This document shows, piece by piece, positions 30,433-57,773 of a stretch of DNA of 64,000 nt (position 1 is the stretch's first letter; every line of letters starts with the position of its first letter). The position numbers were made by a program, and so were the translations under genes. This stretch comes from a bacterium (lineage in GTDB: Bacteria > UBA8248): the NCBI GenBank assembly GCA_965219955.1, contig OZ244799.1:256001-320000 (forward strand), read 5' to 3'. Under the pieces are notes generated by a model, which was not told where the DNA came from, did not search any database, and saw only the letters and a program-made list of their open reading frames with translations.

Positions 30433-30442
30433 CACCCCCTCC

Positions 30443-36962: not shown

Positions 36963-37040
36963 CTCAAGGAGGGGGTGTGATTTATTTCCTTTCGGACTTT
37001 TTCAACACCCGCCCTTGTCGGCGGGGGAGCGCTCCCCTAA

Positions 37041-38775: not shown

Positions 38776-38836
38776 CTAATATGCGGCTTCCCTGACGAGC
38801 CATCATTTTCTGGTTTTCGACATAAAGGAACCTTTC

Positions 38837-40406: not shown

Positions 40407-40438
40407 ATTGTTATTGTTTATTGTTAAACAAGGACAAT
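40407..40438 (+). promoter_or_regulatory. Candidate AbiEi autoregulatory inverted repeat
   Basis: ATTGTTATTGTTTA-ttgt-TAAACAAGGACAAT (12/14 match) just before the start codon. Confidence 0.55.
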
Positions 40439-40442
40439 ACTG

Positions 40443-41048: not shown

Positions 41049-41170
41049 CGCCTCCGGGAAACGTGTCCGCCTCCGTCCGGCAGCGCCTCCTGAACAAGGC
41101 CAGAAGTGAGCGGCGGCTTTTTAGCGAGTTGCTCCAGTACTTCGCCATGGAGCGATTTCTCTACCGGCTG
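41045..41170 (+). pseudogene. Truncated AbiEii-family nucleotidyltransferase toxin (first ~42 codons)
   Basis: GTGA overlap with antitoxin stop; NVSASVRQRLLNKAR...LLQYFAMERFLYRL, then runs into the MFS gene end. Confidence 0.8.
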
Positions 41171-42384: not shown

Positions 42385-42858
42385 TTTTCCTCCGGGGGCT
42401 CAATGCCGTTTGAATCCGCCTCGACTCTATCATGATCCGGCCGGCAACAGCTTGCGCACGGCTGCGCTCAGGCGCGGCGCGGCCTCATCCGGATTCAGCG
42501 TCTCACCTTTCGCAAAGTAATGCGCCTCGAATAAGGCTCTGAATTTCCAACGCAACCTTCCGGGGTTGTTGAAAAAGTTCCCCCGTCAAGGGGATCACTT
42601 GCCTCGCGCTTCCCCTGAAAAAAACTATCCCCCCTTATCAGGGTTGTTGAAATAGTCCTTATTTCGAGTTTCGGTGTATTTTACCTACCGGTGAGAGAGA
42701 AGAATCACTCCCCCCTTGAGGGGGAGTCGAAGAGCTGAGGGCATAAGCCCGAAAGCGATTCGGTGGGGGGTATAATTCAGAATGGCGATAAAACGCATTT
42801 TACCCCCCACCGATTCAGCCTTCGCACAAACCGCTCGGCTTCATCGACTCCCCCTCAA

Positions 42859-44374
42859 GGGCCTGTTGAAAAAGCCCTGGTTTTGTGATCGTATGGAGTT
42901 ATCCCGACTCGCCCGAGATGGGAGTATCCTCGATGTTGGATCGCAAGAGGCGCGAGCAGATGGACTTGTTCGTGGCCGGCCCGCTGGAGAAGTTGATTCC
43001 TGAAGATCACATATTGCGGCAGGTGGACCGCGTGCTGGATTTGAGCTGGCTTCGCGAGGAGGTGGCGGCGTGCTATTGCGCGGACAATGGCCGTCCGGGC
43101 CTGGATCCCGAGGTGGTGGTTCGGTTGATGCTGGCGGGCCTGCTGCTGGGCTACGCGCACGACCGGCGCCTGTTGCGCGAGGCGCAGGCGCACCTGGCGA
43201 TCCGGTGGTTCATCGGGTACAGGCTGGACGAGGAGTTGCCGGACCATTCGAGCCTGACGCGTATCCGTCAGCGCTGGGGGGAGGAGCGGTTCAAGGAGAT
43301 ATTGCGCCGCACGGTTCAGGCTTGCGTGGAGGCGAAGGTGGCGAAGGGAGAAGTGGTGCACATGGACGCTTCGTTGATACGTGCGGACGTGAGCTGGGAG
43401 AGTCTGGCGGAGCGCCACGCGGAGAAGGTGGTGCGGGAGAACGACTCGGAGGATGAGGGCGGGAAGAAGGGCGGGGGCGGGGGTTCGGGGAAGATAAGCC
43501 GAACGGACCCGGACGCTCGCCTGGCGCGCAAGAGCGCTCGCGCGGGGTTCGAGCCGAGCTACAAGCACCACGCGGTGGTGGACGATGAGCGGGGGGTGGT
43601 TCTCGACGTAGCGGTGACGGAGGGGACGTTGAACGAGCGGGAGATGATGGAGCCGCAGTTGGATGCGGTTTGCGAACTGACGGGTCGCGCGCCCGCGGTG
43701 GTGACGGCGGATAGTGGCTATGCGTACTCGAAGGTGTACGGCGCATTGGAGCGTCGGGGGGTCGCCGCGCTGATACCGGCGAAGAAGGAGCCTTCCCAGA
43801 GCCGGGTGCCGCTGCAGTTGTTCCGCTACGACGAGCGTCACAAGGTGGTGAAGTGTCCGGGGGGCAAGACGCTGCGTCCCCGGAAGGAGACGGAGCGGGG
43901 GCGCTACTATGTATCGAGGACGCGCGATTGCGCGGGCTGCGCGCTTAGGGCCGATTGTCTGTCGAAGTCTCGCACGAGCAGGACGGTGCTGATTCCGCAC
44001 GAGTATCCGGCGCTGTTGCGCGCGCGCCGTCGCCACGCGCGCCGGGGGGAGGAGGAGCGCCGGCTGTGGCGCCGCCACATGGGGCGCTCGGAGGGCTACC
44101 ACGGCGAAGCGAAGAGTTGGCACGGACTGGCGCGGGCGGTGCGCCGGGGTATGGAGAACATGAAGATCCAGGCCTACCTGACGGCGACTGCGGTGAACCT
44201 CAAGCGGCTCGCCGCCGCTCATGCGGCAGGTATATTCGCTCTGTGGCGGGCCTGCGCCGCCTCGAGTCGCCGAATGCGCGTTCCCCGCGGCCTCACGCGC
44301 CGATTGGGCTTGATCTCCCAAGCCGCGTGAGACGCCATACCGCCCGCTTCAAAACGGGGTTTTTCAACAACCCC
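42859..44374 (+). mobile_element. IS1182-family element
   Basis: TIRs GGGCCTGTTGAAAAAGCCC / GGGGTTTTTCAACAACCCC; (C)TCAA duplicated; exact ends ambiguous by 1-2 bp. Confidence 0.88.
42933..44330 (+). CDS. IS1182-family transposase
   Basis: IPEDHILR, NGRPGLDP, PDHSSL, MDAS, SRTDPDA, ADSGY, CPGG..CAGCALRADC. Confidence 0.9.
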   Translation: MLDRKRREQMDLFVAGPLEKLIPEDHILRQVDRVLDLSWLREEVAACYCADNGRPGLDPEVVVRLMLAGLLLGYAHDRRLLREAQAHLAIRWFIGYRLDEELPDHSSLTRIRQRWGEERFKEILRRTVQACVEAKVAKGEVVHMDASLIRADVSWESLAERHAEKVVRENDSEDEGGKKGGGGGSGKISRTDPDARLARKSARAGFEPSYKHHAVVDDERGVVLDVAVTEGTLNEREMMEPQLDAVCELTGRAPAVVTADSGYAYSKVYGALERRGVAALIPAKKEPSQSRVPLQLFRYDERHKVVKCPGGKTLRPRKETERGRYYVSRTRDCAGCALRADCLSKSRTSRTVLIPHEYPALLRARRRHARRGEEERRLWRRHMGRSEGYHGEAKSWHGLARAVRRGMENMKIQAYLTATAVNLKRLAAAHAAGIFALWRACAASSRRMRVPRGLTRRLGLISQAA

Positions 44375-44654
44375 CTCAAGGGGGGAGTGAACTTCAAAAG
44401 CGTGCGCTCAACCAAAACCTCTCCATGGGAATTTTCCAACAGCCCGGACAAGGGGGGTTGGAGGTCGAGCGCAACCGGGGAGGGAGTCCGTTTTCCCGTT
44501 CACCAGCTCTCGGCTGCGCCTCCATCGAGCCCGTTCTGGAAGATCGCTTCCGGCCGTAGTAATCTTCACCGGAAAGAAGCCAAGCCGAGAACGTCAGGCA
44601 ACGCCGGCTTACCGGCGGCGGCGAGGGTAATTGTCGTAGCTTAAGGAAAATCAG

Positions 44655-45995
44655 ATGAAAAAGCGCATCCAGTTGGCATTTGATATCTCGTGGACCGAGG
44701 TAGAGACCAATTGGAGGAATCCGGGTTCGTGGGTGGACCGCCACCACCCCAATATCGGGATGTTCGAGGAAGTGGCCCGCGTCGCGGAGCGCGGCGGTCT
44801 CGACCTCATCTTCCTGGGGGACTCGACGGGCATTCCCGACACGTGGAAAGACTCGATTGACGATGCGGTCAGCTACGGCGTCGCATGGCCGAGATTCGAC
44901 ATGAGTCCGTGGATTGTCGCGATGTCACGCGTCACCAGGCATCTCGGGTTCGGCTTGACGTACTCCTCCAGCTTCATGCACCCGTTTTATACGGCGCGCC
45001 TTCTGAATTCCATGGACCATATCACCAACGGTCGAATGGCCTTCAACGTCATCACCTCGGCGCGCCGTTCCGATTTTGCGAACTATGGCTACGACGGGCT
45101 GCCGGATCATGGTGAGCGCTACGAACGGCTCGAAGAGTTTATCGACGTCTGCCGGGCGTTGTGGAACAGCGTCGAGGCGGATGCTTTCCTCTGGGACAAG
45201 GCCTCGGGCCGGATCGCCGACCCCGCCAAGGTTCATCCGATCAATCACGAGGGGAAGTTTTTCAGGGTCAAGGGGCCACTAAGCGTCGTCCCCTCTCCCC
45301 AGGGAAGTCCCGTAATCATACAGGCCGGAGGCTCGCCGCGCGGCATCCAGGGCGCCGCTCATGTCGCCGATCATGTTTTCGGCAGGACCAAGACGTTGCC
45401 GCTCATGGCGAAGCAAAGACGAGACCTCGATGACGCCCTCCTCGCTAAGGGAAGGGACCCGCAAGAGGTCGGGATCTTATGGTCGCTCAGGGCCATCGTC
45501 GGTGAAACCGGGAAACAGGCGAATGCGCTGCGGGAAGCGCTGATTTCCGACGTGCCCACGGAAGCCGTCGGGGCATGGCTGTCGCACAATTCCGGCTACG
45601 ACATGTCCAAACTTCCGCCGCGATTCTCCCTGGCGGAACTTCAGGAACGAATCGTCGCCGCGCAGGCCTCCCCGGTGGGTTTCGTCAATCTCTTGGCGCA
45701 CAAATACGGCGAGCACGCCGAGATCGATCGCGAGGAATTCTTTCGGCATGGACTCGAGGCGGCAACGGGGTACGCCACCGCGTTCACCGGTACGGCGGCG
45801 CAGATTGCCGATCGTTTCGAAGAGATATTCGAAGCGACCGGGAGCCGGGGCGGCTTCATGGTCAAGCAGTCCCAGGCCGGGCCGCGCGAGATTATGCTCA
45901 ACATCGTGGACCACCTGGTCCCCGAATTGCAAAGGCGGGGGAGGTACAGGAAATCGTACGAGGGCAAGACGCTGCGGGAAAACCTCGCCGTCTGA
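44655..45995 (+). CDS. NtaA/DmoA/DszA-family FMN-dependent monooxygenase (luciferase-like)
   Basis: AERGGLDLIFLGD, MDHITNGRMAFNVITS, HEGKFFRVKGPL, SPQGSPVIIQAGGS, LVPELQRRG. Confidence 0.92.
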   Translation: MKKRIQLAFDISWTEVETNWRNPGSWVDRHHPNIGMFEEVARVAERGGLDLIFLGDSTGIPDTWKDSIDDAVSYGVAWPRFDMSPWIVAMSRVTRHLGFGLTYSSSFMHPFYTARLLNSMDHITNGRMAFNVITSARRSDFANYGYDGLPDHGERYERLEEFIDVCRALWNSVEADAFLWDKASGRIADPAKVHPINHEGKFFRVKGPLSVVPSPQGSPVIIQAGGSPRGIQGAAHVADHVFGRTKTLPLMAKQRRDLDDALLAKGRDPQEVGILWSLRAIVGETGKQANALREALISDVPTEAVGAWLSHNSGYDMSKLPPRFSLAELQERIVAAQASPVGFVNLLAHKYGEHAEIDREEFFRHGLEAATGYATAFTGTAAQIADRFEEIFEATGSRGGFMVKQSQAGPREIMLNIVDHLVPELQRRGRYRKSYEGKTLRENLAV

Positions 45996-46089
45996 CCCCG
46001 GCGCAATCGCAAGTCCGTAGAATAAGAATTGGATATGACGAATTATTCAGCAGGACTCATCACCCTGCCGAGGGCGTTCACGCGTTCAT

Positions 46090-46390
46090 TGGTGAGGGCG
46101 GGGAACCTGAAGCTTTCGCAAAAGCGGTCGCGAGGAGAGTTCTCGAGGAACCGGAAGCCGACTTAAGGTTAGCCGTCCACGGCCCCAATCCGCCGGAGAA
46201 CATCGAGCCGGAAAACTCCCGCCGCGCTCCCGCGCTTGGCCCCGCCCGCATGACGCTCGACACCGGAGACGACGCCTTCACCTTCACGGCGCGCTCAGGC
46301 GTCTACGAGCAGTTTGCGCAGTCGCGCGCGCCTGTCTACGGGATGGAGTTCGTGCGCTGCGCGGTGCCGGGTCCGGACCCGTTGGCGTGA
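46090..46390 (+). pseudogene. Duplicated 3' fragment of cinA
   Basis: GPNPPENIEPENSRRAPALG...DPLA* matches the C-terminus of 38837-40099; no credible own start. Confidence 0.9.
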
Positions 46391-46623
46391 TGCTGGAGAG
46401 CCTGAATTTCTAGAACAATTCGATAAATTTAGATAAATTCACGGGGTTTTTCCGTAAATTTCCGTAAATGATCGAGGGGATTTGCGGGGAATTGCGGGCG
46501 TGGGGTGCGCGCAGATGCGGGGAGTTGCGCGCGCGAAACCGGCTGATCTTCGAGCGGCCGCGCCTCATGCGCCCTCCCGGGGATCGTCTTGACGCAGATG
46601 TCCATCATCCGGCTTCCTTTCGC

Positions 46624-48309
46624 CTACGCCTGCCCGTAGCGGCGGCGGCGCCTGTTGATGTCCTCCAGCTTGCGCGAGAGCTTCTCGAGCGTGCGGTTGT
46701 CGCTCAGGTTCCCTTCGATGTGAATGTGGTAGACGTGGGTGTCGCCCCCGCCTCCGCCCATCTCGTCCCGTATCGCGTCGCGGATGATGGGCCGCACGCC
46801 GCGCTGAAAGAAGTCGATGGATTGCGGGTGATTCACGTTCATGATGTGCTCGGGCCCCGCCTCGCCCACGAGTCTGAGCGCCGAGCGCTTGACGAAACGC
46901 CCCGCCGCGTCGCCTTCTTCAATGGGCAGCGCCTTCAAGTAGACGCTGTAAAAATCCTTGCCGAAATACCGCTTCACGCCCTCCTGGGGCGAGATGCCCG
47001 CTTCCCCGGCCGCCCGCTGGATGACCTGGAAAGCCAGACCTGCTTTTTCCAGCAAAGGAAGGTCCACGCTCATCTTCCCTTCGTAGACCGCCTGGGGGAG
47101 TGTGAGGTACTGCGCTTTTTCCGCCACGCCTGTATCGCGGAATTTTTCGAGCGCGAGATACAGCCCGGCCGCCTGCCCGAGATTCGCTATTCCCCGGGTG
47201 AAGGGCGTGGACTTCTTTCGCTTGAAACCGAGGAAGGAGAGCACCTGCTTGATGGCCCCTCCTTTGTTGAACAGGACGTCGGTAAGCAGAAAAGCGCCCG
47301 CCGCAGGCCCCAAGGCGGCGATGCCCGTGGCGCCCGAGAGCGCGGGGAGGGCGCCCGCAACGTTGATTCCCAGACTTGCTCCCCTTTTCAAGGTTTTAGG
47401 ACCCCTCAGGAAGTCCAGCGCGGAGAAGGCGATTTGCAGGGTCGCCGCCGCCTTTGCGGCCGCAATCCGTGCGGCCAGTTCGCTGCTCGCCTTTGCGCCC
47501 GCGCCGGTGGCGACCGCCGTGCCGCCCAGTCGATTCGCCGCCTCGATCTCGGAGATGGATTTGAAAAGGCGCATGATTCCCGCCTCGCCGCCGATTTTCG
47601 CCAGCGGCACCACGAGTTCCGGCCCCGCTTCGCCGATCAGGCCCAGGGTGGGTTTTTTCACCAGGCCGCCCTTGGAGAAGCCGAATACCTTGAACAGGCC
47701 CTTGCTTAGATCACCCAGCAAGCCCGTACCCAAACCCTGGAGAGCACTCACGGCCGGTTTGATGAATTGCGTGCTCGCCATCTCTGCGGCGGCGTTACGC
47801 ACCATGTTGATGGCGTGGTTTTTCAGATCGCTGAACAGATCCTTGGCGCTGTCGATTTTGCCGCTGAGTACGCCCGAGAAAAATCGGGTAAGCGTCTGCT
47901 CGCTGGCCGAGGCGAAGTCGTTCACCGCCCTTCCGGCGATCTGAAAAGAGGCGGGCAGGTCCGCGGCTTTCCTTTTGACCTCGTCCAGGCCTCTGGCGAG
48001 TGGACCGGAGCTGAGCCGGGAGCCGGCTCGTTCCGCATTCCGCCACAGGGAGTTCATCCCCTCGGCTGCATCCATGGACGAGGCGCCGACGCCCTGGAGG
48101 CGTTCCGAGGACCTCACGAAGGCGCGGCTCGATTTTTCGAGCGCGCTCCGCGATCCGCGCGTCTCGAGCTTGAGTTTTTCCGTGGCGATTCTGGCCTGTC
48201 CCGCCGCCTTGGTGAAACGCTCGAGCGCTTTCAGGCTGTTCCCGGAGTTCAGGTCTATTTTCTTCGTTATCGAGATTTTATGGACTTGCTCCGGCACGGG
48301 ATCTCTCAC
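46624..48309 (-). CDS. Phage tail tape-measure-like protein (561 aa)
   Basis: Ala/Gly/Leu-rich helical sequence; FSKGGLVKKPTLGLIGEAGPELVVPL and a second LVGEAGPE; GGGG-THVYHIHIEG tail. Confidence 0.75.
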   Translation of the reverse strand: MRDPVPEQVHKISITKKIDLNSGNSLKALERFTKAAGQARIATEKLKLETRGSRSALEKSSRAFVRSSERLQGVGASSMDAAEGMNSLWRNAERAGSRLSSGPLARGLDEVKRKAADLPASFQIAGRAVNDFASASEQTLTRFFSGVLSGKIDSAKDLFSDLKNHAINMVRNAAAEMASTQFIKPAVSALQGLGTGLLGDLSKGLFKVFGFSKGGLVKKPTLGLIGEAGPELVVPLAKIGGEAGIMRLFKSISEIEAANRLGGTAVATGAGAKASSELAARIAAAKAAATLQIAFSALDFLRGPKTLKRGASLGINVAGALPALSGATGIAALGPAAGAFLLTDVLFNKGGAIKQVLSFLGFKRKKSTPFTRGIANLGQAAGLYLALEKFRDTGVAEKAQYLTLPQAVYEGKMSVDLPLLEKAGLAFQVIQRAAGEAGISPQEGVKRYFGKDFYSVYLKALPIEEGDAAGRFVKRSALRLVGEAGPEHIMNVNHPQSIDFFQRGVRPIIRDAIRDEMGGGGGDTHVYHIHIEGNLSDNRTLEKLSRKLEDINRRRRRYGQA

Positions 48310-48349
48310 TCCTGAGTATGATGCATGATGTGGCTTGATGCCGGGCGCG

Positions 48350-48472
48350 CTAATCCGCCCAGGGGTTGATGAAATGCCACAGGTGGTTCGTGATGAGGCG
48401 TGGCTCGACCGCCGCTATGGCGCAAAAGACGGCGGCGGCCGAGGAAAGCGCCGCGAGAAGATGGGGAATCAT
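48350..48472 (-). CDS. Small hydrophobic protein, 40 aa (absent from ORF track)
   Basis: MIPHLLAALSSAAAVFCAIAAVEPRLITNHLWHFINPWAD*; ATGA overlap with upstream stop. Confidence 0.5.
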   Translation of the reverse strand: MIPHLLAALSSAAAVFCAIAAVEPRLITNHLWHFINPWAD

Positions 48473-48852
48473 GGTTGACGCTCCTTGTTCAGGCGCTCGT
48501 CGAGTCGGGCGAGCGCGGTTTCGACCTCACGCAGACGGCGGAGTATTTGCGCAAAGGCCCGCGCGTCCGCGCGCGTTTTTTTCACGGAAATCGCCTTGAG
48601 TTCACGGAATTTGAGATCGGCGATCGTTTTCGCCTCTCGCAGCCGGGTTTCCACTTCCTGGAAGCGGACGCGCGCGCCCGCGTTTTTCTCCAAAAGCCAG
48701 GGGTGGCCCCGCTCGGCCATGTGGGCCGCCAGACGCGCTTCCACGTTCACGATCTGGTTGTAGAGCGGGGTATAGGCGGCCACCCCGAGGCCGGCGATGC
48801 TCAGGATGGACAAGAATATCTGGAGGCCTTTCCCGTTTCCTTCCGGGGCCAT
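48469..48852 (-). CDS. Membrane-anchored coiled-coil protein (holin/spanin-like)
   Basis: TGATG coupling; TM segment LQIFLSILSIAGLGVAAY; heptad-like LREVETALARLDERL. Confidence 0.55.
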   Translation of the reverse strand: MAPEGNGKGLQIFLSILSIAGLGVAAYTPLYNQIVNVEARLAAHMAERGHPWLLEKNAGARVRFQEVETRLREAKTIADLKFRELKAISVKKTRADARAFAQILRRLREVETALARLDERLNKERQP

Positions 48853-49547
48853 CAGCGCACCGCATCGAAAGAAGAGGCGGCTTCTGCGAGTTTCGCGTCC
48901 AGGGCGGCCACGCTGGTCGTGACGTCGGCATCCCGGGTGTCGCGCACGCATTCGTCGTAAATTTTAAGGAGGGAGGCGAGCTGGCCGAGCAGGGTCGTTC
49001 TTCGGCTCGCCCATTCGTCCACCACGCTTTGACCCGTCGCGTAGCGCGCCGGATAGGCGTCTTTTCTGTTTTTGATGAGCAGGAAGCCCGGCTTTGCGAG
49101 TTTCTCCTCGTCTGAATCCTGCGCCCAGGCGTCGATGAGCCTGGCTTTTTCCTCGTATTCGGCCAGCTTGCCGCCCAGAGCGCTTACCGGCACGCCCACG
49201 ATGCGCGCCTTGGCGGCGTTCAGCAACAGGTTGAGTTTTTCTTTCGTCTGCTCCCGATGAACTTGCGCAACGCCCTCGGGCGCGTGCGCGGCATGAGCGG
49301 CGAGAATGGCCTCGCGCTGCGCCCGCGTGCTCGAACCGGCCACGTTGATGACCCACGTGTCCCGGGCGGGGCCGTGGATTTCGGGCCGGGCGGATTCCGT
49401 CTCGTCGGACCCGGGCCGCCAGTCGGCGTCAGGCGTCATGGTCGTTTTCAGCCGGTGCGCGCTGCCCAGATAGAGGTGCGCGAGGCCGGCAGCTTCCAGT
49501 TCATCCCGAAAATGCGGGCCGACGGCTTTGGACACTTCGATTTCCAT
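48852..49547 (-). CDS. Hypothetical phage protein, possible tail fibre assembly chaperone
   Basis: AGGAG RBS; follows the fibre-like gene; helical C-terminal half. Confidence 0.5.
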   Translation of the reverse strand: MEIEVSKAVGPHFRDELEAAGLAHLYLGSAHRLKTTMTPDADWRPGSDETESARPEIHGPARDTWVINVAGSSTRAQREAILAAHAAHAPEGVAQVHREQTKEKLNLLLNAAKARIVGVPVSALGGKLAEYEEKARLIDAWAQDSDEEKLAKPGFLLIKNRKDAYPARYATGQSVVDEWASRRTTLLGQLASLLKIYDECVRDTRDADVTTSVAALDAKLAEAASSFDAVR

Positions 49548-49556
49548 GTTTGTCTC

Positions 49557-50498
49557 CTAAATCAGAACGACGCTTTGGAAGAGATAGTCGCCGATGTTCA
49601 GGATGGTCGAGCCCGCCACGCGAAAGACGAACGTGGAGTGAACCTCGGCGAGCGCGCCCGTGTATATTTGCGTTTTCGCAATCGCGAAGTTGTCTTTCTC
49701 GCTGTTCGACAGGCGGATGATTTCGACTTCCGGATAGGCCTGCCCCGTTCCGCCGAACAGTTCGAGATTCATATCCAGACCCAACAGACCCGCGATGCTC
49801 GTCGAATTCACCCATCCCTGTCCGCCGGCTTCCTGGCGGATGACGTCGTGGCCCGGCCACGTCAGGATTTCGTGCGTCGCGACGGAGGTCCAGTTGGTGG
49901 ACAGGGTGGTGGCGAGCGTCCCTTTGGATTGGGCGGCGTATTCCGCCTTGTTCCAGAAACTTCTGACATACACGTCGTTCGCCAGAACGAACTGGGACGA
50001 GCCGTCCGTTCTCGCGACCCCGGCGAGGGTGCGGCTGTTGTCATCCGTTTTGTGCGCCAGCCCCGTGGCGGCGTCGAACGCCCAGCTTCCCGTACTGTCG
50101 AATTCGAGTTTGAGCGAGCCCCCGTCATCGTAGACGAAGACGGCATAGGAACTGTCCGCTGTGAGGCCTGCGTTCGTTAGCGTGATTCCCTCCCAGGGCA
50201 AATCCTCGTAATAGACGTCTCCCGACGCATCATCGATGAAGGGCACATGGCAGCCCGCCACGGGGTTGGCGACGGCAGGATAGTAGGAGGAGTTGAGTGC
50301 CGGCTTGAACGCCAGGGTGGTGGCGTTCACATAGTCGAGCCTGCCTGCGCATTCGACAGGTTGCCTGTTGGCCCTGATTTTTCCGTCCGGGAACAGGGCG
50401 GCGAGGGCCAGGCGGTCGATGACGCGGGCTTTCGTGGGGTGGTGGCCGCCGATGGCTTCCTCGGTATAGCGGGCGGACAGATCAGCGCCGATGGGCAT
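49557..50498 (-). CDS. Tail fibre/receptor-binding-like protein
   Basis: AAGGAG RBS, ATG 50498; beta-rich; YAVFVYDDGGSLKLEF..ATG..KTDDNSRTLAGVART resembles prophage fibre domains. Confidence 0.6.
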   Translation of the reverse strand: MPIGADLSARYTEEAIGGHHPTKARVIDRLALAALFPDGKIRANRQPVECAGRLDYVNATTLAFKPALNSSYYPAVANPVAGCHVPFIDDASGDVYYEDLPWEGITLTNAGLTADSSYAVFVYDDGGSLKLEFDSTGSWAFDAATGLAHKTDDNSRTLAGVARTDGSSQFVLANDVYVRSFWNKAEYAAQSKGTLATTLSTNWTSVATHEILTWPGHDVIRQEAGGQGWVNSTSIAGLLGLDMNLELFGGTGQAYPEVEIIRLSNSEKDNFAIAKTQIYTGALAEVHSTFVFRVAGSTILNIGDYLFQSVVLI

Positions 50499-50509
50499 GG
50501 TTTTCTCCT

Positions 50510-51721
50510 TTATGCGTAAGTGGCGGCGTCGCGCTCGGCGCCCAGGAGCCAATCGCCTTCAAGTATTTTGGCGCCATCCAGAAGAGGGGAGGACGTCAGG
50601 AAAAAGCCGGTATCCCGAATTTTGAGTTCCATGCCCTGTTCGCCCAGGTCGTAATTCACCTCGATAACCTCCCCGATTTGATTCACGAGGGGTTCGAGTT
50701 TCTTCGAGCGCATCCAGGGCACGCTGAACGCCACGTAGTCGTCCGGTTCGACTTCGAGCGCTCTCAGGGAGCCGTCCTCGATGGTGAGCATGCGGGTGGG
50801 TTCGTGATAGCGCCCCACGATGCGCGATTGAACGGTGGCGGCCACGCTCTCGCGCCGGATCCATTCGAGCCTGAGCGGGCTTTCAGGAGGTCTCCTGACG
50901 CCATAGAGCCTTTGGGAGGACCTGTTCTGGGTAGCGCTTCCATCGTCGTGTCTGATGTAACGCGCGCCTGGATAATTCCTCGCATAGAGCGCCGGAACCT
51001 GGTTGATCACGGTGTCGCGCGCTATCTCCGCTTCGATGTGCGATTGGCCGAAGCGGGGCAATACCTTTTGTGGCGAGTTCATGAAAGATTCTCCTCCGGC
51101 GATGTGAATTTTCAGGCGACCGAACGGGTCGATTTCGTATCGTCCGAGGAAATCGCCCAAAAGCGCGGTGAGAACGTCGGCGGGCGCATGGTCGTCCATG
51201 ATGATTCCACCCGCCCGGTAGCCGAGCGCCTTTGCGCTGGTTGCCGCGCGCGCGAGGGCCTGCATGTCGATATCCTGCTCACTGAATCCCCAGACGCCCG
51301 CCATGAGGTCATGAACGATCTCGGCGGGGTTTTCGATGAGCCCGCCCGCTGCGGTTTTCCTGCCCTTGCATACGGCCGTCACTCGCCCTTTTGGCGGGGT
51401 GGTGAAAGCGGCTGTGGCGATGACGCCACGGCCCTGATAGTTCTGGGCGAGCTCCAGCGTGTAGTTTTCCGACTCGATGCGGCCATCGTCGTCGAAAAGT
51501 ACGACGCCGCCCCATATCTCGTGCCCGGCCACGCAGTAGACGCCGTCACCTGCGGTGTCGATTTTAGGCGGCGCGTAAACGCCTGTTTTCTCACGCGAAG
51601 GAACCGTCAAATCCCCGTAGATGATGGGGAGGCTCTGGTCTTCGAATTCAGGGGCGGCGTACTTCGAAGCGCGGCCTATCTGAAACGAATCCGAAAGCCT
51701 GTCCGTCGTCGGGTCGGCCAT
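50510..51721 (-). CDS. Phage tail tip/baseplate hub-like protein
   Basis: LPIIYGD, IENPAEIVHDL, GRLKI, LEWIR; position in module. Confidence 0.62.
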   Translation of the reverse strand: MADPTTDRLSDSFQIGRASKYAAPEFEDQSLPIIYGDLTVPSREKTGVYAPPKIDTAGDGVYCVAGHEIWGGVVLFDDDGRIESENYTLELAQNYQGRGVIATAAFTTPPKGRVTAVCKGRKTAAGGLIENPAEIVHDLMAGVWGFSEQDIDMQALARAATSAKALGYRAGGIIMDDHAPADVLTALLGDFLGRYEIDPFGRLKIHIAGGESFMNSPQKVLPRFGQSHIEAEIARDTVINQVPALYARNYPGARYIRHDDGSATQNRSSQRLYGVRRPPESPLRLEWIRRESVAATVQSRIVGRYHEPTRMLTIEDGSLRALEVEPDDYVAFSVPWMRSKKLEPLVNQIGEVIEVNYDLGEQGMELKIRDTGFFLTSSPLLDGAKILEGDWLLGAERDAATYA

Positions 51722-52255
51722 CTAGTTTCCCTCGCATTCAATCGTGACCGATTCGATGCGCTCGATGATCCGGCGGATGGTGAAGCTCGCGATCGAGAGA
51801 ACGTCGGATATGTTTTGTCCCGAAAACCCGACGCGCACGTCGACTCGCCCGCCCACGAACGGCTCCGTCGCGAGCATACGGCTCATACGCGGGTGGCCGT
51901 CCATGTCGGGAGCGTTGTTGACGGCTATCGTAAGGCCCGAGAGTTCTTTTTCTCTGAATGCCTCGAGAATGGAGGGGCCCTGAAACGCGCCGAGAGAGAA
52001 GCGGCCGCCGTCCTCTATCCAGTCATGGACGCCGAGGAGCACTTCCGCTCCCTCTCCCAGCAGGAGCGAGCCGTCGAGAATCCGCGACCCGTCGAGGAAA
52101 TGTATTCTTCCGCCTTGCCCGATCAGGGAGTCGGGCGCCTGCTTGCCGCAGAACACGCGCTTCCCACCGGCGGTGGAGAGGTGATAGAGGACGTGCGCGG
52201 TTTTCCCTTCGTGTCCGGCGATATCCTTGATCGCCTGGTCCGTAGCGCGCTTCAT
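51722..52255 (-). CDS. Phage minor tail-like protein
   Basis: ATGA coupling; LDGSRILDGSLLLG motif; LTIAVNN, VDVRVGF. Confidence 0.55.
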   Translation of the reverse strand: MKRATDQAIKDIAGHEGKTAHVLYHLSTAGGKRVFCGKQAPDSLIGQGGRIHFLDGSRILDGSLLLGEGAEVLLGVHDWIEDGGRFSLGAFQGPSILEAFREKELSGLTIAVNNAPDMDGHPRMSRMLATEPFVGGRVDVRVGFSGQNISDVLSIASFTIRRIIERIESVTIECEGN

Positions 52256-53331
52256 GCGAGTCTTTCCCTGAGCACGAGTTCGAAGGAGAAATCATCCGGC
52301 CCCGTCTGGCGAGGCAGGAAACCGCCCGTGAAATGGGCGAGTATTATCGAGGCGGGGTCATCCACATCCACATGAGCGAAGAACGGTTTGGCCCGCCGTG
52401 TTTCGACGTTCTTCACAGCGCGGTACATGGTGAGAAATTCCCTGCGCTGCTCATCCGATATGCGCTCATAGGGAAGGGTGACCGCGCGGCCTCGGTTCAG
52501 GAGCACCGGATGCTCCGCCATGTTTTCCGTGCGTCCCGCCTCCTCGAAGGATTCTTCTCCCACCACGTTTCCGAACCAGAAGTGATCGGCGGGCTCGAAA
52601 TAACCGCCCAAATACATTTCCGAGATTTCCAGATACGCATCCAGATTGGCGGCGGCGCCTTCGGCCAGAAGACGCCAGTGGCGATACGAGCGTGGCGTCG
52701 TGGCGAGATAGTGGATGAGCGTACCATTGCGCCAGGCGAGTTTTTCGTCGAGTGCGGGCGCGCGCCAGTCTGCAGACCTGTTCGCCTGAATCCGGAGGCT
52801 TGTTCCGGGTGAAAAATTGTGGAGGTGGGCGATGAATACGTCGGGAGATTTTTCCGCGCCGAAATCGAAGGCGAGCGACCACGGGTCTTCGGGCGGAGAG
52901 TTGCTCCTCAACCGCGTGGCGGGGTCGAGGTCATACAGTCTTTTCGGCGAGTAAAAGCGATTCGCCGTCGCCTGCCAATGATCGCCCAGGGCGAAAGCGG
53001 GGGAATCCGCGCCACCTGCGAAGCGGACCTTCACGCCTGAATCCAGGGCGATATCCGTCAGGGAAGTGGGGATGTTCGAGGCTTCCCAACCGCCCGCGGG
53101 TGTCGACGTCTTGCGCCACTTGAAGCGAGCGCTTCCCACATCACCCGGGGCGTCAATTTCCACGGAATAGACTTCCGGGTCTTCTCCGGCGTAGGCGCCC
53201 GAGAAGATCATCGAGCCGCCCGCGCTGGTGACCCGGGGAACGCCCGCGCCGACGAATCCCTTCTCCACGGAAGTGGCGGCGATGGCCGTCTCATCATCGA
53301 TGAGATTTTGATACATGAAGCGATGTCCCAT
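52252..53331 (-). CDS. Distal-tail-like phage protein with discoidin-like module
   Basis: ATG 53331 after AGGAG (ORF open to 53397); LAFDFG..HNF..LRIQAN..YRHWRL..ISEMYLG. Confidence 0.58.
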   Translation of the reverse strand: MGHRFMYQNLIDDETAIAATSVEKGFVGAGVPRVTSAGGSMIFSGAYAGEDPEVYSVEIDAPGDVGSARFKWRKTSTPAGGWEASNIPTSLTDIALDSGVKVRFAGGADSPAFALGDHWQATANRFYSPKRLYDLDPATRLRSNSPPEDPWSLAFDFGAEKSPDVFIAHLHNFSPGTSLRIQANRSADWRAPALDEKLAWRNGTLIHYLATTPRSYRHWRLLAEGAAANLDAYLEISEMYLGGYFEPADHFWFGNVVGEESFEEAGRTENMAEHPVLLNRGRAVTLPYERISDEQRREFLTMYRAVKNVETRRAKPFFAHVDVDDPASIILAHFTGGFLPRQTGPDDFSFELVLRERLA

Positions 53332-53693
53332 TCCGCTCTCCTGGATGAGGGCTTCCATATCGGGAGAAGCGTTCCTCCCGCCGTACTTTGGCATCACTCC
53401 GGCGCGAGAGGATGCCGATGTCGTGGACTATATGGAAATCGGGGAGGTGCGCTCGCCTCGCAAATGCGGGCAAATGCGTGGAGGAGACGTGATTTGGAAA
53501 GAGATGGGAGTATCCTTGAAAGAAGATGAGCCATGAGTTGCCGGGTCTGTTCATGTTCACGGAGAGGGGCAGGAAAATGAAAATTTGAGAAATCGAGAAA
53601 ATCTGCTATACTTGATAGTTCAACAGCAAGATGAAGTTTTTTGTTGTACCTACCGGTTTTATGTAGTGTCCGCCCGACGCTTCGAAAGGGATC

Positions 53694-55178
53694 GTGATGC
53701 GCAGGTTAACAGCGCGTCTCGTCGAGCTAGTTGGCTCCACACGAAAATCCGAGAGCAGCTTTGCGAAGTTCTGGGTAGTTGGCGTGCTCTTGGCGGTGGG
53801 CATCAGCGTCTTCCTGAACGTCCGCTCCGAGATGCCTCCCCCACCCGATTCGTCGGAAAAATCCGCTCCGAGCCCTATTGCGCGTAAAGCCGAAGAAGCG
53901 CGCAAAAATACGACACAACGCGAGTTCACCCAGGCATCTCAGAATCAGATTCGTCAGAAGCCCAGAGAAAATGTTTTGAAGAAAGCCGCCGGGGATCAGC
54001 AAATCAAGAGTCCGCCGAAAGAGGAAAAACTCACCACGGAAGCGGGTAAATTCTCCAGAGCGGACACCGTCATCGGCGTGTTGATGGCGCATAAAGTGCG
54101 CCGTTCGGAGATTCAGAAAGTCCTGGATAGCGTGCGTGAAAAGCGTATTTTTTCGCGCATTCGGGCGGGTCGCCGGTTTGAAGTGAGAAAAAAAGACGGC
54201 GAATTTCTCGAATTCGTTCTGCAGCTCGACAATGAAAGTCGGCTCAGGATCTCGCGAACGCCGAGCGGGGCGATGAGGGCCACGAAAGAGGCCATCCCCT
54301 ATTCCATCGATGTGGTACGCATTCAATCCCGCATTCAGAGTTCCTTGTATCATGCCATCGCCGATGGCGGCGGCTCTCCCGTACTGGTGAACAAACTCAG
54401 CGATATTTTTGCATTCGTCATTGATTTTCATAAGGATTTACACAGTGGAGACGAGGTGGAGGTCCTGGTCGAGCGGAAGCATATTCAGGATGAATTCGCC
54501 GGCTACGGACGGATTCTGGCGGCTGAGTTCATCGTGAGGAACAGGCGGCACACCGCGGTGTACTTCGAGGGCGGAGGCGGCAGATATTATAATTTCGAAG
54601 GTGAGTCTCTGAAGCGCGCCTTTTTGCGATCTCCGCTTCGCTATACGCGAATCAGTTCGCGCTTCTCGAAGAGGCGCTTTCATCCCGTGCTCAAGCGCTA
54701 CCGTCCCCACTTTGGCGTAGATTACGCCGCGCCCCGGGGGACGCCTGTCCTTGCGGTCGCCGATGGCGTCGTCGCCTGGGCGGGCCGCAAACGCCAAGCC
54801 GGCAAGACGATCGAACTGCGCCATGGCGGCGGTTACCGAACCGCCTATCTCCATCTGTATCGGTATGCGCGCGGGATTCGCGCGGGCAGGCAGGTTCTCC
54901 AGGGTCAAGTCATCGGCTACGTGGGTTCCACGGGTTTGTCCACCGGCCCCCATCTCGATTACCGGATCACTCGCCGTGGACGGTATTTGAACCCCCTGAA
55001 GGCGAAACTCCCCAAAGGAATACCGCTCCCCCGTTCGCTGCGCTCGGCTTTCAAAAAGATTTTGGACGAGCGTCGAACGATGTTTGACAACTTGCCCCTG
55101 CTGAAGGAAGTTCAGGCTTCACCCGCGGCCCACGAGCCGTCATTCGGCGCCGGGGATCAGCAAACATCACGTCTTTGA
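53694..55178 (+). CDS. M23-family peptidoglycan endopeptidase (MepM-like)
   Basis: N-terminal TM; RFHPV, HFGVDYAA, YLHL, TGPHLDY. Confidence 0.93.
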   Translation: MMRRLTARLVELVGSTRKSESSFAKFWVVGVLLAVGISVFLNVRSEMPPPPDSSEKSAPSPIARKAEEARKNTTQREFTQASQNQIRQKPRENVLKKAAGDQQIKSPPKEEKLTTEAGKFSRADTVIGVLMAHKVRRSEIQKVLDSVREKRIFSRIRAGRRFEVRKKDGEFLEFVLQLDNESRLRISRTPSGAMRATKEAIPYSIDVVRIQSRIQSSLYHAIADGGGSPVLVNKLSDIFAFVIDFHKDLHSGDEVEVLVERKHIQDEFAGYGRILAAEFIVRNRRHTAVYFEGGGGRYYNFEGESLKRAFLRSPLRYTRISSRFSKRRFHPVLKRYRPHFGVDYAAPRGTPVLAVADGVVAWAGRKRQAGKTIELRHGGGYRTAYLHLYRYARGIRAGRQVLQGQVIGYVGSTGLSTGPHLDYRITRRGRYLNPLKAKLPKGIPLPRSLRSAFKKILDERRTMFDNLPLLKEVQASPAAHEPSFGAGDQQTSRL

Positions 55179-55202
55179 ACTGAAAACGAAACAAGGGAGA
55201 AG

Positions 55203-55718
55203 GTGCTCATGTTGATTCCCTTCGAGGGAGTGCTGCCCAAAATTCATGAAACCGCCTGGTTGGCGGAAACCGCCGTCGTCATAGGTGATGTGGAGATCGG
55301 GGAGCACAGCAGCGTTTGGTACAACTGCGTTCTGCGCGGAGACCACATGCCCATCCGCGTGGGCAAGCGCACCAACATACAGGACGGCTCCATCCTGCAT
55401 ATCGAAAGCGGTAAATACGACTGCGTACTGGGCGACGACATTACCGTGGGCCACATGGCCATCGTGCATGGGTGCCATGTGGGAGACGGCGCTGTCATCG
55501 CGATGGGCGCCATCGTGCTCAACAACGTGAAGGTAGGCGAGGGCGCCGTCGTCGGGGCGGGCGCCGTCGTGCCCGAGAACAAGGTGATCGAGCCCGGAAC
55601 ACTCTGGCTGGGCGCGCCTGCGAAGTATGTGCGCGATCTCAACGATGAGGAAATAGAGCGTTTCAAGAGCGCCGCCGTCTCCTACATGAACAACAAAGAA
55701 CGTTTCAGAAATTCATGA
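55203..55718 (+). CDS. Gamma carbonic anhydrase-like protein (YrdA/CaiE)
   Basis: VIGDVEIG, VLRGD, TNIQDG, VGHMAIVHGC. Confidence 0.92.
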   Translation: MLMLIPFEGVLPKIHETAWLAETAVVIGDVEIGEHSSVWYNCVLRGDHMPIRVGKRTNIQDGSILHIESGKYDCVLGDDITVGHMAIVHGCHVGDGAVIAMGAIVLNNVKVGEGAVVGAGAVVPENKVIEPGTLWLGAPAKYVRDLNDEEIERFKSAAVSYMNNKERFRNS

Positions 55719-55742
55719 CCGCACCGGAACCCCTCTTTTTTC

Positions 55743-56702
55743 ATGTCTGAACATTCCCGCCCCGACGCTTCGGCCCCGCTAGCCGCGGTGGTGGATTTGG
55801 GCACGAACGCAGCCCGCCTGGCGCTCGCTACGATCGATAATGCGGGCAGGCTGGAATCGCATGGCCGCTGGCGTGAACTGATTCGTCTGGGCGAGGGGGT
55901 TCGCGAAACGGGCCTTCTCTCCGAGAAGGCCATGGAGAGAGGACTCGCCTGCCTTGCCCGGTTTGCGCAAATCATTGAAAAACATCGTGTTCACCTCGTC
56001 GACGCCCTGGCGACCAGCGCGCTGCGCGAGGCGCGAAATTCGGATGTATTCATAGCGCGCGCCCTGCAACTGGGGATTGCAATGCGCGTTATTGCACCGG
56101 AGGAAGAAGCGCGCCTGGCGCTGGCGGGCGTTTTCGCCGGCGAGGAGGCCAGACCCGAACGCGCGCTGGTGTTCGACGTAGGCGGGGGAAGTCTCGAGGT
56201 GATGCTTGCTGAGCATGACGAGGTTCGAGAGATGGCGAGTCTTCCCGCCGGCGTGGTGTATCTGACGGAGTGCTATTTGAAGAACATGCCCACGCCTCAT
56301 GAACAGGTCCAGGCTTGCTCGGAGGCGGTGGAGGCGATGTTGGCGGACGTTGATTTCGACGAGGCGGAACTGACGGAAATTCCCTTTATCGGTTGTGGGG
56401 GAATGGTGGCGTTGGCCTGGTTTTTGACAGAAGGCAAACCGCTAGGCGGGGGCGTGAATGGCCTCTCGCTGCCCGCTTCTTTTTTCGAGGAATGGGTCGG
56501 TCGGTTCGCCGGGTTGTCTTATGAAGAAAGAAGCGGGCTGCGTGGTTTCGAAATGGGGCGTGAGGACGTAGCGCTTGCCGGGCTGATTGTCGTGCGCGCG
56601 CTGTTGCGGTGGGGACGAAAGAAGGAATTGGGCGTATCGACCGGCGGTGTTCGCGAGGGAAGGCTTCTGGAATTGTTGAAGTCAAGCGCGCAGAATCGTT
56701 GA
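55743..56702 (+). CDS. Ppx/GppA-family phosphatase (short form)
   Basis: DLGTNAARL, RLGEG, ATSALREA, EEEARL, DVGGGSLE, GVREG. Confidence 0.9.
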   Translation: MSEHSRPDASAPLAAVVDLGTNAARLALATIDNAGRLESHGRWRELIRLGEGVRETGLLSEKAMERGLACLARFAQIIEKHRVHLVDALATSALREARNSDVFIARALQLGIAMRVIAPEEEARLALAGVFAGEEARPERALVFDVGGGSLEVMLAEHDEVREMASLPAGVVYLTECYLKNMPTPHEQVQACSEAVEAMLADVDFDEAELTEIPFIGCGGMVALAWFLTEGKPLGGGVNGLSLPASFFEEWVGRFAGLSYEERSGLRGFEMGREDVALAGLIVVRALLRWGRKKELGVSTGGVREGRLLELLKSSAQNR

Positions 56703-56774
56703 AATCGATTGTGAGGCGTGTGTTGGTTCGATGAATCGCAGGACGCCCGGATATACCTCCTTGTGCTTTGTTGT

Positions 56775-56803
56775 TTGACACTGCTTCGCCGCCTTTTTAT
56801 ATT
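56775..56803 (+). promoter_or_regulatory. Sigma70-type promoter upstream of yceD
   Basis: TTGACA-17 bp-TATATT. Confidence 0.7.
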
Positions 56804-56892
56804 TCTAAGTTAGGCGTTATGGATAGGAGCCCGATGCGACGCGATGTCGCAAAACGCACCCGTCTTGCGGCGCACATCCTCTGGGGAAACGA

Positions 56893-57430
56893 TATGGGGA
56901 AAATACTTCAATTTCCTCTCTCCCAAATTCCGGATAATGGCCTGGATGTCGCTCTGGATTTGGAAATGGATGATTTGGAGGAAGTTTGGTTCCGGGCTTC
57001 TGGATTGAAGCTCATCGGCAAGTTGGAAAAAACAGGCTCTGATGAGGTGAGTTTCCAGGGTCGGTTGAGCGGTCGGTTTTTGTTGGAATGCTCTCTAGGC
57101 CTGGCGGAATTCATTCATCCATTCGATGAATCTTTGGCCATCTATTTTTCGCGAATGCCGCAAGATACCGGTTCAGATGATGAAGTTGAACTGAGTGAAG
57201 AAGACCTCGAGGTCGCGTATATCGAAAATGAAACGGTGGATCTAACGACGCCGGTACGCGACCAAATCGGGCTGGCGATTCCCGTTCAGCCCAGATGTCC
57301 TGATAAATGTCTGGGAGAAGCGCCTGAAACTTGCCGGAAACTCGATGAGGGAGAGTCCGTCGGCGTGGGCGCGGAATCGGATCCGCGGTGGGGGCCGCTC
57401 AGTGGTTGGAAACCAGGGGGCTCCACTTGA
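56893..57430 (+). CDS. YceD/DUF177 family protein
   Basis: LECSLGLAEF, VDLTTPVRDQIGLAIP..CPDKCLG, DPRWGPL; precedes rpmF. Confidence 0.85.
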
Positions 57431-57573
57431 TTTTTGAATGGTTCGTGTGAGGTGAATCTCAATTTCAAAATATGTGGTAGTATGTGATGTTTCTGTTTTC
57501 GGGTATGACGCCGAGAGGACATCGGCGGGAATTGCTCGTGTTTAACGTATTATTGTGAAAGGAGTGCGGTGCT

Positions 57574-57753
57574 GTGGGGCTTCCCAAACGTCGGCACTCG
57601 CAGACGCGAGGCCGTAAAAGAAGAACACACTACAAGGCGGCGAAACCATCAATTGCGGTTTGCACGAACTGTAATAATCCGGTTTTGCCCCATCGGGTGT
57701 GCAATATCTGCGGGTATTACAAGGGTCAGAAAGTTCTGGAAGTGAAGGAATAA
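57574..57753 (+). CDS. rpmF: 50S ribosomal protein L32 (absent from ORF track)
   Basis: Manual translation MGLPKRRHSQTRGRKRRTHY..CTNC...PHRVCNICGYYKG. Confidence 0.96.
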   Translation: MGLPKRRHSQTRGRKRRTHYKAAKPSIAVCTNCNNPVLPHRVCNICGYYKGQKVLEVKE

Positions 57754-57773
57754 TACTGCCACTGGAAGAGACA

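Follow-up and report, generated by a model that had tools for sequence, protein, structure and literature searches.

A phage tail operon as part of a probably gene transfer agent-like, siphophage-derived element dispersed over three chromosomal sites

The DNA analysed here (the window) is a stretch of 64,000 nucleotides (nt), positions 256,001 to 320,000 of contig OZ244799.1, and it carries on its minus strand, at 46624-53331, an operon of eight genes encoding predicted phage tail proteins and their companions. We found that this operon is, very probably, the tail part of a split head-tail element that selection maintains in a genus of Nitrospinota associated with sponges and corals. The head genes lie elsewhere on the same chromosome, so that some 16 kb of element genes, sixteen genes at three sites, are scattered over ~2 Mb. 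Comparison with relatives shows, at the level of sequence, a complete set of structural and packaging genes of one siphophage lineage that is dispersed, fixed in position, equipped with a shared type of promoter and lost as a whole; its products would form one particle. The best explanation overall, which we regard as probable, is a tripartite, vertically inherited, siphophage-derived element that resembles a gene transfer agent (GTA); that its particles act as a GTA is a view that we favour only slightly. The first-pass annotation of this DNA had proposed a tail module maintained by the host and completed by loci elsewhere. Both parts of the proposal hold up: the module is single-copy, intact and syntenic in 20/22 other genomes of the genus and has purifying ratios of nonsynonymous to synonymous substitution (dN/dS), and terminase, portal, protease-capsid, neck, tube and chaperone genes are found at 2.71-2.73 Mb.

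Genomes are cited below by G-numbers (G000 is the window's own genome, with chromosome contig C1; the others are other genomes) and genera by g-numbers. The operon comprises eight successive minus-strand open reading frames (ORFs), which in their longest forms span 46624-53397; read as ORFs, none has an internal stop, and the G+C content of the module, 61-62%, is the same as that of its surroundings. The predicted products, in the order of the operon, are as follows (lengths in amino acids, aa):

52252..53331, minus strand: p381, tail-tip protein, probably a distal-tail or adaptor component adjoining the tape measure; 359 aa from ATG 53331 (longest ORF 52252-53397, 381 aa from its first start, GTG 53397)
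51722..52255, minus strand: p177, predicted N-terminal module of the baseplate hub as a separate gene; 177 aa
50510..51721, minus strand: p403, predicted baseplate hub protein (T5 pb3, lambda gpJ N-terminal or gp27-like fold); 403 aa
49557..50501, minus strand: p331, probable tail fibre or receptor-binding protein; 314 aa from ATG 50501 (longest ORF 49557-50552, 331 aa)
48852..49547, minus strand: p231, genus-specific protein; 231 aa
48469..48852, minus strand: p160, N-terminal hydrophobic helix followed by a long helical region; 127 aa from ATG 48852 (longest ORF 48469-48951, 160 aa)
48350..48472, minus strand: 40-aa hydrophobic protein with an invariant C-terminal tail, recognized from the ORF and its relatives
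46624..48309, minus strand: p561, predicted tape measure protein, moved to last place in the operon; 561 aa

For p381 we take ATG 53331 as the likely start, because GGAG lies 5 nt upstream of it, the ATG is kept in 10/10 aligned upstream regions, and homologues are 358-359 aa long. The likely starts of the fourth and sixth genes, p331 and p160, are ATG 50501 and ATG 48852. With these starts the operon occupies exactly 46624-53331, and the eight intact, co-oriented and tightly coupled ORFs of the first-pass annotation are confirmed. p381 and p177 overlap by 4 nt (ATGA, 52252-52255), p177 and p403 abut directly (51722/51721), gaps of 9 nt separate p403 from p331 (50510/50501) and p331 from p231 (49557/49547), p231 and p160 overlap by 1 nt (TGATG at 48852), p160 overlaps the 40-aa gene by 4 nt (48469-48472), and 40 nt lie between the latter and the p561 start at 48309. 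The 40-aa ORF is judged to be a real gene, since it is conserved in the loci of 9/9 relatives (75-90% identity; full length in 8, with a partial match in G022).

For the seven larger module proteins Pfam gave no match above noise, and searches of Pfam, PHROGs and NCBIfam gave nothing above noise for any module protein except p561. The AlphaFold2 model of p403 (pLDDT 89.9, pTM 0.84), made with an alignment of 60 sequences drawn from 228 relative clusters at E ≤ 1e-3, was compared with the PDB by Foldseek. It matched the DT57C baseplate (8e-12), the T5 tail tip (pb3; 1e-11, TMq 0.58), Chi, JBD30, T1 and the lambda tail tip (gpJ; 1.5e-7), as well as a virion chain of the Rhodobacter capsulatus GTA (RcGTA; 6tba_8A, E 3.7e-7), with 35 matches at E ≤ 1e-3 in all. 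These are phage baseplate hubs, not non-phage structures, and by its modelled fold p403 is a siphophage baseplate hub of the gp27/pb3/gpJ type. Consistently, its neighbours in the atlas are clusters of viral proteins, including one in which 20% of the members have Phage-tail_3. The likeness is one of fold: TMq is 0.54-0.58 to the T5 and DT57C hubs at a sequence identity to pb3 and gpJ of 8-13%, and p403, with 403 aa, is without the long C-terminal extensions of pb3 and gpJ (targets of 720-949 aa). A tblastn search with p403, p381 and the fused relative P0050 against 50,697 phage records returned no match, and profile searches with the p403 and p381 alignments against PDB sequences returned chance-level matches only.

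A further difference from pb3 and gpJ is that the hub appears to be encoded by two genes. Many p403 relatives are ~570 aa long, and in them the match to p403 begins at about residue 170; p177, in turn, matches the N-terminus (E 2e-10) of one such protein, 574 aa long, which has the p403 homologue as its C-terminal part. Such relatives, with a p177-like N-terminus and a p403-like C-terminal part, indicate that p177 and p403 are one hub in two genes.

The tape measure assignment of p561 draws on weak profile matches and on gene position in sister genera. p561 is a long helical protein with a hydrophobic stretch; it matches the tape measure family phrog_1535 (E 1.2e-7, a weak profile match) and NCBIfam RcGTA_tape at E 7e-10, but its 39 bits fall short of the cut-off of 220. 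In G032, the protein whose gene immediately precedes that of the hub ends in a sequence similar to the last 110 residues of p561 (E 9e-6). The p561 homologues of G055 and G041 are flanked by tube/chaperone on one side and the tail tip on the other, and in G024 and G043 the next gene downstream is the p381 homologue. Similarity to the tape measure of G027 was not significant. The tail-protein calls of the first-pass annotation, which rested on motifs, are thus now backed by the p403 hub model and by the position of p561.

p381 is probably a distal-tail or adaptor component of the tail tip. In G027 (a siphophage-like locus), G024, G043 and G041 the next gene after that of the tape measure encodes its homologue, and p177 and p403 follow in this order; the G027 homologue matches phrog_8610, a family of unknown function. 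In other genera, homologues of p403 or p381 (P0030-P0033, P0212-P0217; 584-645 aa) bear LamG domains (PF13385), which are typical receptor-binding add-ons.

p331 follows the hub gene and is probably a tail fibre or receptor-binding protein, because it combines a conserved anchor with a variable distal part: in g2, g19 and g20 the first ~60 residues alone are conserved, and in g17 most of the protein is. Its atlas neighbours are again viral clusters, one with the Mtd second domain (mtd_2nd) in 65% of members, and it matches phrog_34307 at E 1.2e-4. p231 and the 127-aa membrane/coiled-coil protein p160 occur in 9/9 relatives' loci. p231 has no family match in Pfam, PHROGs or NCBIfam and no homologue at E ≤ 1e-4 in the fetched loci of other genera; the hydrophobic stretch of p160 weakly matches phrog_34951, and a holin- or spanin-like role for this protein is a guess. 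Together with the 40-aa protein, these two appear conserved and specific to the genus. Between the small membrane genes and p561, relatives carry zero to three tandem genes for a ~184-aa lipoprotein without a family match: three copies in G001 (L009:11795-13582), one in G008 (L012:11464-12117) and none in the window.

The head genes were found by searching the translated neighbours of distant p381 and p403 homologues (in G027 and G032) against G000. They lie on the same chromosome at 2.71-2.73 Mb, ~2 Mb from the tail operon, with amt on one side and cupin-cofE-cofC-cofD on the other. The predicted features, in G000 coordinates, are:

2730774-2731832, minus strand: terL, terminase ATPase of GpA type; 352 aa
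2730130-2730777, minus strand: terminase nuclease ORF, starting at a CGIDTGD motif; 215 aa
2728778-2730133, minus strand: portal; 451 aa
2716819-2718897, minus strand: prohead protease/major capsid fusion of Phage_capsid_4 type (PF25209); 692 aa
after the capsid gene, minus strand: three head-tail joining proteins, of 271 aa, 169 aa (an HK97 gp10-like neck protein) and 177 aa
after the 177-aa gene, minus strand: tail tube, Phage_tube_2; 379 aa
2712601-2713023, minus strand: chaperone-sized protein; 140 aa

About 10 kb of ordinary opposite-strand genes (2719256-2727838) separate portal from capsid, and this interruption is stable across the genus (7 relatives). The nine phage genes of the head locus and the intervening host genes keep an identical order in 7/7 genus genomes fetched. 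In 8/8 genomes the two large terminase genes meet at one and the same position, where they share ATGA or GTGA, and purifying selection acts on each half. The small terminase families PF07471, PF05119 and PF03592 have no match in the G000 genome, and the scan of ORFs beside the loci brought up no integrase family and none for replication or lysogeny. The genes between portal and capsid are x431, a dCMP deaminase, a dehydrogenase, two luciferase-like monooxygenases (lux), a UGSC-family protein and x366; the lux and x431 part of the interval is present already in genus g2.

The deposited phage closest to the element by its capsid is Microcystis phage Mae-JY22 (PP438414.1), whose fusion is 32% identical over 94% of the query. 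It has the same gene order of capsid fusion, three small proteins, a tube-sized gene, two small genes and a tape measure, then a 253-aa and a 655-aa protein. Between its tail-tip proteins and those of the window the similarity is weak (hhalign E 2e-3 and 8e-4, probabilities 13% and 24%) and, unlike the element here, it is a complete 41-kb phage genome.

Head and tail genes are distributed alike. p403 is present in 20/22 other genomes of the genus, as a single copy without stops in each and at 69-96% identity, and capsid and portal are present in the same 20, with a further 26-aa trace of the portal detected in G010; p403 also occurs in several other genera of the family. The sources of homologues are named Nitrospinae, Nitrospinaceae or, probably by mislabelling, Tectomicrobia, and near-identical DNA occurs in sponge, coral and marine metagenome runs of 7 studies. 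In 9/9 genus genomes from which 20 kb were fetched, all module genes are present in the same order and adjoin hexapep-ppx-yceD-plsX-fabH, with the M23 peptidase gene between in 6/9, and cinA lies on the far side of the module within the fetched stretch in 6/9. The module thus occupies a fixed cinA/M23 site in close relatives, where no full prophage stands in its place.

The two genomes that lack p403, G009 and G010, lack capsid and portal as well; in both, cinA stands beside M23 without a trace of the module. G010 retains, between x366 and amt, a 41-aa remnant of the portal end together with a relic of the promoter motif described below, and these leftovers show that the element was deleted there and not missing from the start. 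Four flanking host proteins (1108 columns, 12 genomes) gave a tree in which G009 groups with G001 and G007 (support 0.97) and G010 branches beside the clade of the window's genome. Since the two are not sisters in this tree, the losses appear to be independent. Among 42 genomes of the family, p403 and capsid occur together in 31 and are both missing from 7, while capsid is found alone in 3 and p403 alone in 1; several of the discordant genomes are fragmented assemblies or carry visibly decayed copies.

In other genera the element is found in one piece. A single contig of G055 carries terminase, portal, (lux, x431), capsid fusion, a 271-like gene, neck, a 177-like gene and tube, and further on the p561 homologue, p177, p403 and the p331 N-terminus before cofE-cofC-cofD. 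G041 has capsid through tube, chaperone, tape measure, p381, p177, p403 and p331, and the G048 element is also contiguous, beside cof and cupin. Because head and tail are contiguous in these three genomes, the ancestral element of the family is reconstructed as one head-to-tail block at the amt/cof site. In the window's genus the genes downstream of the chaperone would then have been relocated to cinA/M23, and the tape-measure gene has come to stand last; such a permuted order would be expected if a circular intermediate had opened again at the boundary of the tape-measure gene and p381.

The full structural gene set of one phage lineage could also suggest an active temperate phage. The genes are, however, spread over ~2 Mb, host genes lie between portal and capsid in 7/7 genomes, the sites are fixed across the genus, and the ORFs beside the loci yielded none of the integrase, replication and lysogeny families, all of which makes an active phage scarcely credible. 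An intact prophage is ruled out by the fixed sites, the dispersed parts and the absence of integrase and regulatory genes beside the loci.

We compared selection on element and host genes by pairwise dN/dS (NG86) between the window's genome and seven others. Values were 0.08-0.49 for tail genes (p381, 0.15-0.30; p177, 0.08-0.22; p231, 0.24-0.39; p160, 0.13-0.18), 0.09-0.35 for head genes with the exception of the neck, and 0.03-0.30 for neighbouring host genes; most element values were 0.1-0.3. The dS values are similar in range (0.13-1.1 for element genes and 0.26-1.95 for host genes). The element genes are thus estimated to be under purifying selection, with no sign of relaxation.

These values also bear on whether the loci are slowly decaying remnants of an old prophage without present function. 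Decayed copies do exist in other genera (G023, G045, G054), the terminase is split, and lysis genes were not found in the module and locus scans. Against decay, the sixteen genes are intact in the 7-9 fully examined genomes, bar p177 of G007 and the 40-aa gene of G022; dN/dS is well below 1 at dS 0.2-1, where neutral sequence would be riddled with stops; and the terminase split point is itself conserved, with its ATGA/GTGA overlap, in 8/8 genomes. We therefore consider present lack of function most improbable. In the decayed element of G023 (L036, G023:C132), terminase and portal are in pieces, the genes from capsid to p381 are missing, and fragmented p177 and p403 stand directly after the x431 gene.

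Four trees (flanking host genes; tail genes; head genes; host genes lying within the head locus) share the groupings (G001,G007) with G019, and (G008,G022); (G002,G012) was recovered too in the trees that sample G012. Host-gene and element trees thus agree on the major clades and differ in the position of G000 in the tail tree. The trees fit vertical descent, perhaps with some recombination among close relatives.

Scanning the module for the sigma-70 consensus gave no promoter on its minus strand. Upstream of p381, terminase and capsid fusion there stands a tandem-repeat motif, CGCATTT(C/G)CCCGCATTTGC, exactly 27 nt before a TAnnnT box. The copies in the window are:

53460..53478, minus strand: tandem-repeat promoter motif CGCATTTGCCCGCATTTGC, upstream of the tail operon and present in 10/10 aligned p381 upstream regions
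53427..53432, minus strand: -10-like box TATAGT, exactly 27 nt after the motif
46508..46530, minus strand: degenerate motif copy, ~94 nt downstream of the p561 stop (genome 302508-302530)

The boxes at this spacing are TATAGT (p381), TATATT (terL), TAGTTT (capsid) and, in relatives, TACACT (p561); p561 has its own copy of the motif in relatives where lipoprotein genes separate it from the operon. Motif and box stand out as conserved when 10, 7, 8 and 5 upstream regions are aligned, and at ≤3 mismatches the motif precedes p381 in 9/9 relatives, capsid in 7/7 and terL in 6/7; it also precedes p561 in 5/9. By arithmetic from the density of sites, the chance that the motif lies ≤130 nt upstream of all three operons in the right orientation is of the order of 1e-7. 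Degenerate copies after p561, one or two, are found in relatives as well; they face the 3′ end of cinA and have no obvious driven gene.

The motif is not confined to the element. G000 has 87 sites at ≤2 mismatches; a 23-mer at ≤4 mismatches gives 59, of which 56 are intergenic by crude gene calls, with ~0.09 expected by chance. Other sites stand before such genes as those for pyruvate dehydrogenase E1, MnmA and an acyl-CoA dehydrogenase. At ≤1 mismatch the counts are 33 in G001, 45 in G008, 0 in G009 and 1 in G010 (reversed control, 0 in all four), and a degenerate pattern gives 24, 37, 0 and 2, one of the G010 sites being the relic beside the portal remnant. G048 has a variant motif (CGAATTT repeats) with 9 sites, 3 of them inside its element. 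The motif set is thus nearly absent from the element-less genomes G009 and G010, though both nest among carriers. We read this as one trans-acting factor whose regulon would include the particle genes, regulon and element having been given up together in two lineages. No DNA-binding candidate for the regulator was found among the ORFs after 41 further motif sites, which are ordinary enzymes or frames without a coding signature; Pfam matched 11 of 20 such ORFs and left 9 unmatched. No tRNA lies downstream of the 87 sites.

Thirty-four of the 87 sites fall in three families of short non-coding repeat units, with 9, 13 and 12 copies. The units often form convergent pairs ~235 bp apart, for example at G000:C1 4086905(+)/4087140(-), 4185146(+)/4185382(-) and 3559271(+)/3559496(-); the motif-headed units of family A contain no ORF. 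They could be small RNA/antisense pairs or a promoter-carrying family like miniature inverted-repeat transposable elements. Two paralogous collagen-repeat proteins of G000 (110338-111015 and 2645165-2645896) both have the motif in front of them, in double copy at the first site. As additional fibre loci of the element, collagen-triple-helix-repeat proteins were rejected from the core, being present in just 6/22 genus genomes.

The first-pass annotation had left open whether the module is part of a tailocin or of a GTA. The GTA part of that alternative fits and the tailocin part does not, as capsid, portal and terminase are retained and lost together with the tail genes. A tailocin-like, adhesion or secretion device made by the tail module alone, with the head locus as an unrelated relic, would agree with the lack of head, tube and sheath genes in the window and with G026 (other family), which has p381-, p177- and p403-like genes and a lysozyme-like gene without a match to this capsid or portal. 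F-type tailocins are likewise host-retained sets of siphophage-type tail tip, tape measure and fibre genes, and have no capsid, portal or terminase. Here, in contrast, these three are co-conserved with the tail genes (20 genomes) and co-lost with them (2), in exactly the same two genomes of the genus. Tube and chaperone are encoded at the head locus and not with the tail tip, and the window module has no tube or lysis family; capsid, portal and terminase are equally under purifying selection; the head genes carry the same promoter motif; and head and tail are contiguous in sister genera. We regard a tail-only device as very unlikely. In the G026 locus (L018, G026:C4:143900-163800) the p381-like protein is 904 aa long, a gene of the size of p177 occupies the syntenic position, the p403 homologue is intact and a lysozyme/transglycosylase-like gene is also present; this locus may be a true tail-only module or may have head genes of another family.

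How the split head-tail element would work can be outlined from its genes. It cannot propagate as a virus, because its genes are scattered over ~2 Mb and the loci have no integrase, replication or lysogeny genes. For the same reason of scatter, a particle could not carry its own genome, and a head filled by the terminase would have to hold other DNA; since no small terminase of the three Pfam families was detected, the initiation of packaging is probably not sequence-specific. We suggest that the shared tandem-repeat promoter switches on the three loci together, that heads, tubes and tail tips assemble into particles, that the terminase fills the heads with host DNA without a sequence-specific small subunit, and that released particles would deliver this DNA to related cells in the manner of a GTA. 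Such a particle, unable to hold its own genome and with other DNA in its head, fits the GTA definition as it is worded in PMC8987985.

The same split element might make particles for another host use, for example PBSX-like killer particles that package DNA incidentally and whose victims would be competing strains. The evidence for a head-tail set maintained by selection applies equally to this use, the distal gene after the hub varies between genera, as it would in a targeting device, and the habitat, judged from run labels, is a dense sponge or coral community. PBSX-like defective prophages (PBSX of Bacillus) also make host-retained head-tail particles; these particles cannot propagate but do package host DNA, and the prophages are contiguous, with their own regulator or repressor and lysis genes. 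The element described here is unlike them in lying dispersed at three sites behind a promoter motif that it shares with host genes. We hold killer particles to be unlikely, while keeping them in view.

RcGTA of Alphaproteobacteria, with its head-to-tail genes in one cluster, offers the closest parallel in mode of life: siphophage-derived head-tail genes fixed in the chromosome at several loci, vertically inherited, under purifying selection and without integration or replication genes. The p403 fold matches an RcGTA virion chain, and p561 weakly matches RcGTA_tape. Membership in the RcGTA family was nevertheless rejected, as that tape match stays far below the cut-off and the RcGTA-family capsid PF05065 and portal PF04860 have no match in G000 (controls match in Caulobacter). 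The element differs from RcGTA further in its protease-capsid fusion of Phage_capsid_4 type, its GpA-type terminase, the split of that terminase, the missing small terminase (three Pfam families) and the division of the main structural cluster into three parts. As the phylum is also different from that of RcGTA hosts, the domestication would be independent.

Several observations weigh against a selection-maintained, GTA-like element. The large terminase lies in separate ATPase and nuclease ORFs in 8/8 genomes, and we know of no functional precedent for a two-polypeptide large terminase; the small terminase was not found in G000 (three Pfam families); and no endolysin or holin was identified in scans of the module proteins (Pfam, PHROGs). 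The neck protein evolves fast (dN/dS 0.45-0.67), and the dS of the most distant pairs (up to 1.9) is near saturation. The tail-gene tree places G000 with G008/G022, unlike the other three trees. The p177 match of G007 is in two pieces (a possible frameshift), the portal of G015 is in three pieces with a TGA, and elements are fragmented or partial in G023, G045, G054, G056 and G057, some of which are fragmented assemblies. The co-loss amounts to two events only, and 84/87 motif sites lie outside the element, before ordinary host genes and non-coding repeats. Particles, DNA packaging and transfer are predictions from the gene content.

A more specific proposal can be made only tentatively, and we would not back it over its negation: an independently domesticated Nitrospinota GTA of sponge and coral symbionts, of family-wide origin, housed at three loci in one genus, with a split terminase and no small terminase, driven by a tandem-repeat promoter regulon that would also govern dozens of host promoters and non-coding repeat units, and discarded together with this regulon on two independent occasions. 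As part of this proposal, the joint loss of particle genes and regulon points to a single regulator that would tie a phage-derived particle to host physiology. To our knowledge, only a handful of independently domesticated GTA lineages are known, all from culture work, and searches made mainly at title and abstract level turned up no report on gene transfer agents, domesticated phage or this element in Nitrospina or Nitrospinota. What is new here is a GTA-like element of independent origin that combines a layout in three parts with a permuted tail operon, a split terminase, the fusion of protease and capsid, and a regulon-wide motif lost along with it. If the proposal is true, it adds a GTA lineage in a phylum of animal symbionts and uncultured nitrite oxidisers for which no route of gene exchange is known. 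The case lends itself to comparative work, offering a contiguous ancestral form, a three-part derived form, two independent losses and a motif that marks all units. It also raises the questions of whether two polypeptides can do the work of a terminase, whether packaging in the absence of a small subunit would yield random host DNA, and what regulator of the host governs a domesticated phage.

The surroundings of the tail operon agree with the earlier description. Contigs of the coral metatranscriptome run X20 overlap the module at 47729-48066, 48494-49006, 49367-49686 and 52714-53234 with a likeness of ~90-96%, which is at most a hint of transcription, as such libraries can contain DNA and contigs do not demonstrate transcripts; stretches left uncovered carry no information. 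No Rfam family was found in window 38000-58000. As the first-pass annotation stated, integrase, repressor, terminase, portal, capsid, tube, sheath and endolysin families are absent, here among the 40 ORFs of at least 150 aa in 28.8-64 kb. On the high-coordinate side, the opposite-strand M23 peptidase gene is followed by core genes (hexapeptide transferase, Ppx/GppA, YceD, PlsX, FabH, FabD, FabF and RNase III). The low-coordinate flank is rich in insertion sequences (IS), a feature noted earlier and seen in four transposase ORFs (28835-30274, 30499-31722, 37251-38681 and 42885-44330), two of the Mutator family and two of DDE type; it also holds an AbiEi-type antitoxin-like gene (40443-41048), a major facilitator superfamily transporter and a luciferase-like monooxygenase. 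Window 28835-46390 is thus a variable stretch, with IS and other genes inserted between cinA (38837-40099) and the module; in G001, G007, G019, G022 and G014 the gap between cinA and the module, without the inserted genes, measures ~0.1-0.25 kb.

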